From Candidatus Latescibacterota bacterium (GTDB lineage: Bacteria > Latescibacterota > CBDEFO01): DNA of 64,000 bases. This document shows, in pieces, positions 12,866 through 18,702 of the stretch; the first letter of the stretch is position 1, and every line of letters starts with the position of its first letter. The notes under the pieces were generated by a model, which was given only the letters and a program-made list of their open reading frames with translations, made no database searches and was not told where the DNA came from. The stretch is taken from the NCBI GenBank assembly GCA_965237525.1, contig CBDEFO010000008.1:64001-128000 (forward strand), read 5' to 3'. A program made the position numbers and the translations under genes.

Positions 12866-12940
12866 GTAGGGGCAATCCCCGATTGACTCTATCGGGGGTC
12901 GGGGACTACTCGCCTCAAGGGCAGGGAACCGTGCCCCTAC
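12866..12940. repeat. GTAG-type REP-like palindrome hosting a 19-bp element
   Basis: GTAGGGGCA...TGCCCCTAC inverted arms downstream of the acetamidase stop. Confidence 0.7.
12878..12896. repeat. 19-bp palindromic element, copy 1 (with extra GGTCGGG tail to 12903)
   Basis: TC|CCCGATTGACTCTATCGGG GGTCGGG|GA. Confidence 0.9.
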
Positions 12941-12992: not shown

Positions 12993-13467
12993 ATGCGATT
13001 TAGCAGAACAATAAAGCTTAATAAGAATCTGTCCCAAGCGTCAGATCTTGTGCGCAGATATTTTACAGAAGAAGGATACAGCCTCAAACAAGAGTCGGAA
13101 GGAAGCTATATCTTCGAGCGCGGGAAAAGATGGGTGTCACTATACACCTTCAGAATAGAGAAGTGTCACACTCTCCTGAACGCTGAGCTTGAAGAGATAG
13201 ACACCAATTCTACAAAATGCACTCTTTCGTATAAGGTACAGTCCCCGATTGAATCTATCGGGGATCGGACAGATTATCTTGAAGCTCGACAGGGAATTCT
13301 GGGAATATGAATTGAATAACTTGATCTCTTTTGTGGAAGGCGGCAAAAGAGCTGAGGAGAAACATGAGTTCAATCAATACAGAAGGCGGAGGGTCGTCGG
13401 ATGGATATTGAAGTACGGCACCATTCCCGGTGTAGTGATAGGCATAATCAGTGTCAAAGGCTGCTGA
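12993..13467 (+). pseudogene. Hypothetical membrane-anchored protein gene frameshifted by a 19-bp insertion
   Basis: ORFs 12993..13310 and 13249..13467 join in frame (SYKVQSIGQIILKLDREFWEYEL) when 13244..13262 is removed. Confidence 0.8.
13244..13262. repeat. 19-bp palindromic element, copy 2
   Basis: TC|CCCGATTGAATCTATCGGG|GA. Confidence 0.95.
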
Positions 13468-13518
13468 AGGCAAAAAGGAGATAATGTATAGCAGAATATC
13501 AGGTGCAAACAAAAACAC

Positions 13519-13547
13519 TTGCGTTGTACCATCAACCTTATTATATT
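13519..13547 (+). promoter_or_regulatory. Putative sigma70 promoter of tRNA-Glu
   Basis: TTGCGT-17 bp-TATATT upstream of the tRNA. Confidence 0.55.
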
Positions 13548-13556
13548 TTTCTGGTC

Positions 13557-13594
13557 CCCGATTGACCCCCCGATTGAATCTACTGGGGGTCGGG
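13557..13594. repeat. 19-bp palindromic element, nested copies 3 and 4
   Basis: TC|CCCGATTGACCC[CCCGATTGAATCTACTGGG]GGTCGGG|GA; inner copy 13569..13587. Confidence 0.9.
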
Positions 13595-13605
13595 GAGACG
13601 ATAAC

Positions 13606-13681
13606 GGCGCATTCGTCCAGTGGCCCAGGACGCTGGCCTCTCACGCCAGAAACAGGGGTTCGACTCCCCTATGCGCCACCA
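13606..13681 (+). tRNA. tRNA-Glu (anticodon CTC)
   Basis: 76 nt. Acceptor stem GGCGCAT/ATGCGCC, anticodon arm CTGGC-CTCTCAC-GCCAG, T arm AGGGG-TTCGACT-CCCCT, encoded CCA. Confidence 0.97.
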
Positions 13682-13694
13682 ATTTAGAGTCTTC

Positions 13695-13742
13695 AAAAGG
13701 TCGTAAGCGTGTCCCTCAAAGCACCTGCACTTACGACCTTTT
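13695..13742. terminator. Bidirectional terminator-like inverted repeat
   Basis: AAAAGGTCGTAAG...CTTACGACCTTTT between the convergent tRNA and CDS. Confidence 0.7.
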
Positions 13743-13743
13743 C

Positions 13744-14820
13744 CTATATCTTCTTGATATTCTTCTTATTCAATACGATCCAGCTTTGGTCTATCTCAAC
13801 GCCCGCTACGATGTAGCCGAAAGCGGTGTGGTCAAGGGCCTGTTGTATCTGGCTTTTCAGTTCGTCCTCTGTCACGTCCCAACCCTGAATCACTGAGATG
13901 AGCCTCTGATCCCTGTCGTAGAGTCTGTATCTATCCAGGATGGCGCCGACCCAGGCGGCTTGGCATCCGTAGGCGGGGTCGTCCCTGTCGAAGACTTTAT
14001 AGAGGGAGAGTATCCCGACCGCCTTCAGAGGACTTAGAGTCTTTATAAGCGTGGGATATGTCTCCAATCCGTCGGGATGAGAACAGAGCATTCTTCCGTA
14101 TCCCAACGTAGTTTCAGGATCTTTGACGCCTCCGACTTCAAGGCCCGCTTCGCACTCTTCAGTAATGATCGGGACTACGTTAAACCTGGGGAAAAGAGAT
14201 TCTACGGCTTCTACAAACCTTAAGACAGCTATGGGGTTCTTTCCAAAGTAATCGGGCCAATCCCCTGACAACTTCTCACCTTCCGAGTTATCCCACATCC
14301 TGCACAGGGCGTTCCCGCAGCCGCAGCCTTCGGGAGCGGACTGGACATCGTTGAGAAAGATGCCGAGGGCACGCTCCGGTCCTGCTCTTAGGATGAGGGA
14401 TTTTACCCTATCCTTTTCGTAGTCGAAGACACCCTTGTTGTTGATGGAGACCCAGGGGTAGATGGACACAGAAGAGCCGCCGTAGAACCCAGTCTTATGC
14501 GGACGGTGCATCCATTTTCGGTTTTTGGCTACGGCAGACCTGTCTCTTCCAACCTCGATCCAGTAGTACAGACCGAAGCCGCTTGTGATTATGCTGTCCT
14601 TGACACTAGAAATATCGGCGTCTTTTTTGATCCTGGATATGTCAAGGACTACCGAATTGTATCCCTCGTCTCTTAATTTCTCAAGGAGACTTTGATCTAT
14701 CTTGTCAGGAGATGTGAGGTATCCCCTGAGGGTTTCTTCTCCTTCAGTATATGCATTTATAGCTGTAAACAGGACTAAAAGGGAAATAATTAAGATTATG
14801 CTCGTTGGGCGCATTTTCAT
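13744..14820 (-). CDS. Hypothetical exported protein
   Basis: 358 aa ORF with signal-peptide-like N-terminus, GGAGG RBS, Cys cluster GCGCGNALCR. Confidence 0.8.
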   Translation of the reverse strand: MKMRPTSIILIISLLVLFTAINAYTEGEETLRGYLTSPDKIDQSLLEKLRDEGYNSVVLDISRIKKDADISSVKDSIITSGFGLYYWIEVGRDRSAVAKNRKWMHRPHKTGFYGGSSVSIYPWVSINNKGVFDYEKDRVKSLILRAGPERALGIFLNDVQSAPEGCGCGNALCRMWDNSEGEKLSGDWPDYFGKNPIAVLRFVEAVESLFPRFNVVPIITEECEAGLEVGGVKDPETTLGYGRMLCSHPDGLETYPTLIKTLSPLKAVGILSLYKVFDRDDPAYGCQAAWVGAILDRYRLYDRDQRLISVIQGWDVTEDELKSQIQQALDHTAFGYIVAGVEIDQSWIVLNKKNIKKI

Positions 14821-17818: not shown

Positions 17819-18702
17819 TTAAGCGACCTGGGGTAGTAGATAAAATTGTTTTCTCCACTCTTCCGGGGTCTTATATCCCAGGGATGAATGAAGCCTGTTC
17901 TTGTTGTAATTATCGATCCACTGAGATATGATCTTCTCAGCCTGTTCAAAGGATTCAAACTTGTGAAGCCAAACACACTCTTGCTTGAGGGTCCTGAAAA
18001 AACGCTCTACAACACCGTTCCAATCGGGATTACCACTTGGTATGTATTCCTGACGAATTCCCCAATATTCGGTACTTGCCAAATAGGTCCGAGACAAAAA
18101 GATGGAGCCGTTGTCAGAGCGAAAAGTGAGACCCTGGGGGACAGCCTCCTTGGAAGTGTATCGAGAGATCACGGCCCGATCCAGGGCATCTGTGGCCTCC
18201 AGTGCCCTCCCTTTTCGACTAAAACGATACCCGGGAACCTCCCGACTCCCGTTGTCCACCACCGCAATAAGAGGACACCAACCGTCTTCCCCACAATAGA
18301 CCTTGGTCAAGTCAGCCGACCAGAGACTGTCAGGACGATCCATCACAGAACGCTTCTGGGCAACCTGTGGCCCCTTTCTCCCGGGGTCCCCGATTGATTC
18401 TATCGGGGATTCCACAGCTTACACTGCCACCCCTTAAGCTTCATTATCCTATGAACCTTCTTGATGCTGACACATTCCCCTTCCTTGAAACGAAGATGCG
18501 CCCAAACCCGCCTGTGACCAAATGCCTCTTCTTGGTCGAGTATCCCTCGAACACGAAAAGCAAGCTGTTCATCTATCACAGACTCTTCGACAGAAGAACT
18601 GACACCTCTATACCTAAGCCTATACAGAGTCGAACGATGCAAACCCAAAGCCAAAGCTACCACCTTACGGGAATAGCCTCGACCCAAAAACCGCCCACTC
18701 AA
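17819..18702 (-). pseudogene. IS3 orfB transposase interrupted by a 19-bp element
   Basis: FGHRRVWAHLR, WSADLT, SDNGS, NGVVERFFRTLKQE. The element at 18389..18407 supplies a stop. Confidence 0.85.
18389..18407. repeat. 19-bp palindromic element, copy 5
   Basis: TC|CCCGATTGATTCTATCGGG|GA. Confidence 0.95.

Follow-up and report, generated by a model that had tools for sequence, protein, structure and literature searches.

The SDR repeats of Nostocaceae (Elhai et al., 2008, PMC2527708, as presented in PMC5861425, PMC4390886, and PMC2884548) are about 20 nt long, occur in many copies, and are possibly mobile; the passages on them in the latter three papers name no enzyme, and describe SDR5 as inserting precisely within HIP1, a palindromic site. 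In yeast mitochondria, substitutions adjoining GC clusters such as GC42 are read as co-conversion tracts, according to the part of PMC4478555 that deals with these clusters. In SPDIR, described in Acinetobacter baylyi (bioRxiv 10.1101/2024.07.02.601687), clustered changes result when single-stranded DNA pairs at microhomologies and a short stretch is thereby replaced; the passages of the preprint used here describe it as rare in the one species studied and held down by RecJ. REP/REPIN hairpins, associated with TnpA(REP)/RAYT, are intergenic, reach hundreds of copies, and in some cases lie in frame in genes (passages in PMC8266576, PMC3733652, and PMC3116915), while CGTC-tagged REPs are presented as having no known transposase (PMC3733652). 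The spread of transposase-less short palindromes is called open in the passage on CGTC REPs (PMC3733652), and REP dissemination poorly understood in the passage of PMC8266576. Our literature search yielded nothing relevant on the exact 21-nt motif analyzed below, on Latescibacterota repeats, or on co-conversion at bacterial palindromes.

The repeat considered here resembles SDR, as described in these passages, in being dispersed, about 20 nt long, and both present and absent at orthologous sites. Unlike at SDR5, insertion here replaces the flanking bases and is not tied to one site (18 different 4-mers among 25 empty sites); the host belongs to a different phylum, and the comparison is one of descriptions rather than of sequences. 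Like GC42, it is a short hairpin rich in GC that may be present in one relative and absent from another, has copies merged together, and is accompanied by neighbouring substitutions; however, GC42 as presented in PMC4478555 resides in an organelle, is 42 nt long, duplicates an AG target, and has intron-encoded enzymes at hand, whereas the repeat analyzed here resides in a bacterial chromosome, is 21 nt long, and usually inserts with a net loss of 2 nt and no duplication. SPDIR, in the passages cited, uses arbitrary donors and forms no repeat family, while here one hairpin would be copied hundreds of times; its rarity and suppression by RecJ, encoded in both genomes compared below (MutS-family genes are also present), count against SPDIR-type conversion at this repeat. 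Unlike REP/REPIN as described in these papers, the repeat has no paired REPIN layout and no Y1 transposase at hand, and the flank columns of its copies in the genome containing the locus reveal no unpaired GTAG or CGTC tag at the hairpin end; it does land inside REP-like repeats.

Distribution of a 21-nt hairpin repeat

The window is the whole analyzed stretch of 64,000 nucleotides (C8:64001–128000) of an assembly of 4.58 Mb that is 96.6% complete (G000). It was compared with the sole relative from the same genus, G001 (a single 4.54-Mb chromosome, 98% complete), identity over the window region being 94%. The comparison covered 2.8 of the 4.54 Mb of G001 (140 stretches), the last 1.74 Mb lying outside it. 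Copies anchored on both flanks make up 217 of 552 in G000 and 193 of 292 in G001, and stricter anchoring removed 38 and 45 comparisons, respectively (83/410). The comparison of two genomes is unrooted for most filled/empty events, and some pairs are different IS copies, not orthologues.

The basic unit of the repeat is a 21-nt hairpin (features of the window are collected in Table 1). G000 contains 117 exact copies, 464 copies with at most two mismatches, and 552 with at most three; the window has 15 matches versus 0.71 expected. As an earlier note on this DNA had claimed, the consensus contains neither TCGA nor CCGG. Among the 464 copies, the repeat is flanked by T..A in 227, C..G in 147, T..G in 31, and C..A in 25, and this pattern underlies the targets TC^GA and CC^GG proposed in that note. 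Beyond one base the flank columns are mixed, and the commonest flank 6-mers belong to host repeats. Of the 552 copies, 442 have a complementary closing pair, and 29 copies carry compensated changes at one stem pair, so that stem pairing is kept: the fold of the repeat matters. Similar to REP/REPIN, the repeat is high-copy and mostly intergenic, with 415 of 552 copies not wholly within long ORFs, which occupy 81% of the genome. There is no strand bias relative to transcription (148 versus 147 copies); with respect to replication, the skew of G001 is weak and shows no switch across the 2.8 Mb compared.

Table 1. Features of the window discussed in the text (positions are those of the window).
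Feature	Position	Strand	Basis or remark
Copy with the right arm of a nest behind it, net +27	12877..12904	+	absent from G001
Exact consensus copy, net +19	13243..13263	+	frameshift in the gene starting at 12993
Candidate sigma-70 promoter, TTGCGT-17-TATATT	13519..13547	+	sequence
Outer (older) 21-nt copy, left arm and first loop bases	13556..13566	+	sequence; layout as in 43 nests; common to G001
Inner insert: junction C 13567, 21-nt copy 13568–13588, junction G 13589	13567..13589	+	
Outer copy, right arm	13590..13595	+	sequence; nest layout
tRNA-Glu, anticodon CTC	13606..13681	+	ARAGORN

Other repeats of G000 include IS-like families of about 124 copies (1.5 kb) and about 45 copies (1.3 kb), and a repeat of about 158 nt with 63 members, 42 of which carry the hairpin. 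An IS-like element with the hairpin is seen in both genomes (L300:793, with window 18388–18408 noted alongside), hence copies also ride larger elements. Units of 27 nt (the hairpin and six bases) form tandem pairs at G000:C8:740138, 742987, and 1729777; one tandem pair of this unit originated within a pre-existing copy.

The exact 21-mer occurs in two of 168 Latescibacterota genomes, namely G000 and G001; no exact match was found in five genomes of other groups or in viral contigs. It is present in at least 120 stretches of metagenome contigs. The matches listed there represent 62 distinct contexts on contigs with GC content of 36–68%, and these show either no match to G000 or matches in conserved genes only (65–70%; one of 94 nt, 85%); C..G or T..A flanks are seen in 58 of the 61 listed contexts with both flanks. 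That an identical 21-mer turns up so patchily would point to horizontal transfer between hosts.

Flanks are replaced at filled sites

At orthologous sites of G000 and G001 the repeat may be present in one genome and absent from the other. Apart from anchored comparisons without length change (83 for G000, 82 for G001), the commonest net gains are +19 (19 in G000, 6 in G001), +20 (9, 2), +27 (8, 3), +18 (3, 4), and +21 (4, 1). The mode of +19 (25 comparisons), which agrees with the net gain of 19 nt given in the earlier note, corresponds to loss of two target bases; there is no target-site duplication of fixed length, as in MITE or class II elements, and duplications of 3–6 nt are seen in some +26/+27 events only. 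The +26/+27 events carry extra recurring flank bases, including, at 12877, the right arm of a nest; this copy was likely taken from a nested donor together with part of the donor flank. As a source of the +19 and +27 gains, a fixed staggered cut (23-nt unit, ±4 nt) was weighed and rejected, as most +27 events show recurring flank bases and no duplication.

In 44 distinct filled/empty pairs (+18 to +21), the bases at −1 and +1 each differ in 27 pairs; the numbers drop to 11 and 11 at −2/+2, 9 and 7 at −3/+3, 8 and 4 at the next positions, and 1–5 at five or more bases away. Where both genomes carry the repeat, only 6 of 165 comparisons show a difference at −1, and likewise 6 at +1; a site may count here from both sides. 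The 25 empty sites with net gain of 19 represent 18 different 4-mers (TAGA 5, TCTA 2, TCGT 2, TCGA 2, CCGG 1, and others). A central CG, seen in 9 of 25, is favoured, and this part of the earlier idea of CG-centred targets stands; CCGG or TCGA, however, are found at only 3 of 25 sites and, given the changed flanks relative to the empty alleles, are mostly a product of insertion. Target sites inferred from filled sites alone can thus be artefacts. Usually, an event trades about four target bases for the hairpin and its closing pair.

The direction is clear in six events, where a long frame is open when the site is empty and broken when it is filled. The four frame-breaking +19 events all have a central CG; two have unchanged flanks, and two have one changed flank. 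At 13243, the site is empty both in G001 and in contigs from runs X4 and X14, with ACGA in place of the T..A flanks of the filled allele; the open stretch is 158 codons when empty versus 112 when filled. This insertion is a young knockout of the gene at 12993–13467, which matches no Pfam family and is open in G001. As for other frames, an in-frame copy with net gain of +18 lies at G000:C4:403016, inside an 896-codon frame with a second MutS-family match, and 7 of 12 events of +18/+21 lie in frames of more than 190 codons that remain open.

The origin of the new junction bases was assessed by a donor test, in which the donor copy was chosen solely by the outer flanks of the empty allele, with paralogous regions excluded; it supersedes a first version (77/112 versus 40) that had included paralogous siblings. 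The changed junction base was predicted at 47.4 of 76 positions versus 30.4 expected. The gain sits in the best-matched third to half: best-matching donors predict 24.7 of 33 versus 11.3 expected, while poorly matched ones perform at about chance level (11.1/21 versus 9.6; 11.6/22 versus 9.4). Long flank likeness leaves about half of the events unexplained; replacement with microhomology to the donor on both sides is seen in about half, the rest being at chance level. Flanks of some donor are matched at 15 or more of 20 bases by 17 of 31 empty alleles in G000, versus 0.6% of random intergenic sites (n = 1500). Both flanks are shared by 99 of 441 copies versus 35 in shuffled pairs (maximum of 300 shuffles, 54) and, outside known short repeats, by 15 of 179 versus 3.7 (maximum 12). 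The flank matches are partly accounted for by the fact that many targets are short repeats in their own right, although a conversion model predicts this as well. On balance, we lean towards copy-and-paste spread of the repeat via conversion guided by the flanks, with a folded single strand as the likely intermediate.

A competing possibility, which we regard as unlikely, is that a dedicated nuclease or recombinase inserts the hairpin at CG-centred sites, the flank changes and the spread of nests (described below) following later by ordinary gene conversion between copies; the very first nest could then have formed in a mutated copy. Central CG at 9 of 25 empty sites (exact YCGR at 3), which includes all four frame-breaking net-19 events, the sharp +19 mode, and two un-nested copy readings with TCGA in G000 agree with such an enzyme, and the identity of the 21-mer across unrelated hosts suggests a recogniser of its own. 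The stability of flanks at sites filled in both genomes (6/165 per side), however, makes later conversion look too slow to produce 27 changes in 44 pairs, and at young frame-breaking insertions (13243) the flanks are already changed. Candidate enzymes also speak against it: Y1/HUH transposases (PF01797) have no matches in G000 and G001, IS110 is missing at the matching place in G001, and reverse transcriptases (PF00078) have no matches in G000 and two loci in G001, both absent from G000.

By eye, one of the two G001 loci resembles a retron interrupted by an IS, and the other a lone reverse transcriptase; the former (L300:1387–3273, family assigned by eye) has a retron-like reverse transcriptase and an upstream partner gene, is truncated by the IS, and has no counterpart in G000. 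The only IS110 of G000 (L179) was rejected as the mobiliser: one repeat copy lies nearby, the element is absent from the matching place of G001, where this was checked, and the repeat flanks are changed. Also rejected was a small GIY-YIG gene (L177:1414–1764), whose flanking repeat is a different one and which lies more than 1.5 kb from any hairpin copy. The inverted repeats around it have the look of CGTC/TGTC tags; the gene is absent from the matching place of G001, and similar repeats are found elsewhere. Among proteins recurring beside the listed metagenome matches (unannotated clusters), no nuclease or recombinase family is prominent.

The nested hairpin before tRNA-Glu

The element nested inside an element that the earlier note had described upstream of tRNA-Glu is real in both letters and coordinates: positions 13556–13595 form a 40-nt hairpin-in-hairpin (net 38 nt, if the outer C and G are assigned to the site), with the sequence CCCCGATTGAC, C, CCCCGATTGAATCTACTGGGG, G, TCGGGG; 10 nt separate it from tRNA-Glu(CTC). 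The inner insert occupies the place of TCTA in un-nested copies (TCAA from the other strand). A genome search for un-nested and nested copies, advised in the note, gave 552 loci and, with a strict definition of the leader's own layout, 43 nests in G000, as well as 22 in the compared part of G001. By junction, the 43 nests are 26 C..G, 13 T..A, and 4 G..G; by direction of the inner copy, 26 are same and 17 inverted. In a looser search of 603 copies with at most four mismatches, outer arms are present on both sides in 37, on the left only in 51, on the right only in 87, and on neither in 428. Triple nests are also present in G000. In a metagenome contig with GC content of 39% (L193), a copy has arm-like sequence on both sides, and nesting may occur in other hosts.

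The earlier note held that the outer copy was the one variant that had mutated to CCGG and was hit again by a 19-mer of strict YCGR specificity. The string does parse in this way, +19 is the mode, and CCGG/TCGA are seen at 3 of 25 empty sites. Nevertheless, the nests of both genomes interrupt the outer hairpin copy at the same position, so the leader is no singular variant, and at this position CCGG is found in 0 of 847 strand readings of un-nested copies in G000 and 0 of 432 in G001 (TCGA in 2 and 1, respectively). Un-nested orthologous alleles, in 7 of 25 net-19 events, are ordinary copies with TAGA/TCTA, and three changes from TCTA to CCGG would be needed here and in 25 other C..G nests. 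The claim is largely refuted, and we consider this history highly improbable.

The tRNA-Glu leader is covered by runs X2, X4, and X16, with no coverage in X5, X11, X12, X14, and X15. The nest is also present in G001, apart from two differences within the inner copy, and hence predates the split of the genomes or was shared by recombination; the nested leader is also found in X2 and X4. Run X16, in turn, contains a 180-nt contig over 13512–13700 that differs by one letter and by gaps of 12 and 7 nt; without these, the leader has the plain consensus 21-mer, un-nested and lacking CCGG. This un-nested allele is neither the CCGG precursor nor a clean excision product. It is based on one contig with depth of 6.4, which matches the letters of G000 at 13548 and 13626, where G001 differs; it may be a reversion rather than the ancestor, but in both cases it departs from what the earlier note predicts, and a reversion to consensus fits conversion by a plain donor.

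The gaps of exactly 12 and 7 nt, along with one-sided +12 and +7 forms of the nest, could also point to local events, with one copy duplicated twice by slippage (12 and 7 nt) or flanks corrected with the hairpin as template; some flank changes, indeed, merely complete the stem. Local tandem duplication, named in the earlier note as the finding that would overturn a second insertion, disagrees with the inverted inner copy in 17 of 43 nests and with the variable loop base, which mostly differs between inner and outer copies (in 9 of 10 T..A same-direction nests). Which inner loop variant is present goes with the type of nest, nest subfamilies are common to unlinked sites, and two changes separate the leader copy from a subfamily that comprises four further nests of the same direction. 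At TAGA, TCGT, and GCGT sites both flanks change together, beyond stem correction. We consider local events quite improbable.

Could the nested hairpin be retained for regulation of tRNA-Glu(CTC) processing or stability? Both genomes, at about 94% identity, have retained it, and its predicted fold is about −22 kcal/mol; however, the z-score of the fold is only −1.3, different stem-weakening changes are seen in G000 and G001, the X16 relative does without the inner copy, and 83 of 217 anchored copies are shared anyway. There is no enrichment of copies within 80 nt upstream of tRNA/tmRNA genes (2/47 versus 1.8 expected), and such a role is extremely improbable. The cloverleaf is predicted to fold alike with the nested and un-nested leader, with about ten bases free before the tRNA, which should be enough for RNase P. 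The leader would lengthen from about 14 to about 52 nt, likely with no effect, and the copy is probably neutral.

The promoter that the earlier note had placed before the nest retains candidate status: the letters match with a score of 8/12, below the threshold of the promoter scan, which listed none in 13300–13900. By eye, five other tRNA genes have TATATT at a similar place. Although X16 comes from an RNA library, its contig runs across the candidate promoter and is therefore no sign of transcription. A second tRNA-Glu (TTC) is encoded elsewhere in G000. Directly after the tRNA, 13683–13740 contains an inverted repeat and shows strong strain variation, run X2 having two versions; further upstream, an acetamidase/formamidase gene (PF03069, 11826–12855) is apparently split across two overlapping frames.

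A possible route of spread

Flank-guided conversion could proceed as follows. The donor would be a short single strand, in which folding of the hairpin brings its two flanks together; thus joined, and together with the terminal C and G, the flanks would anneal to a similar-looking site at a fork or break, and host replication or repair would fix the pasted stretch, as in SPDIR. Sites with a central CG, REP-like repeats, and existing copies of the hairpin would make the best targets. As copies themselves are among the best targets, nesting would occur with no mutation to CCGG. In the leader, the inner copy would likely come from an already nested copy elsewhere and replace four bases of an ordinary copy; a nest could also be removed again by a plain donor. 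The model predicts far better integration for an oligonucleotide that has the hairpin and 5–8 matching bases per side than for one without the fold.

More tentatively, and with a chance well short of even, the hairpin may be a self-guiding selfish element that uses its own flanks as the guide and host enzymes alone, rewrites the junction, and jumps unchanged between unrelated bacteria. Flank-guided insertion or nesting may already be described for SDR in parts of that literature other than the passages used here; the authors of the 2008 study are said to have proposed recombination with the flanks.

The copy in the tRNA leader is an ordinary member of the family; what is new is the overwriting of flanks at insertion. 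Two genomes that are 94% alike yield dozens of before/after pairs showing co-conversion of flanks for a bacterial repeat, and the leader locus exposes a testable route for the spread of a very small one. If the self-guiding reading is true, the hairpin would rank with the smallest known mobile DNAs and provide a mechanism for transposase-less bacterial repeats.
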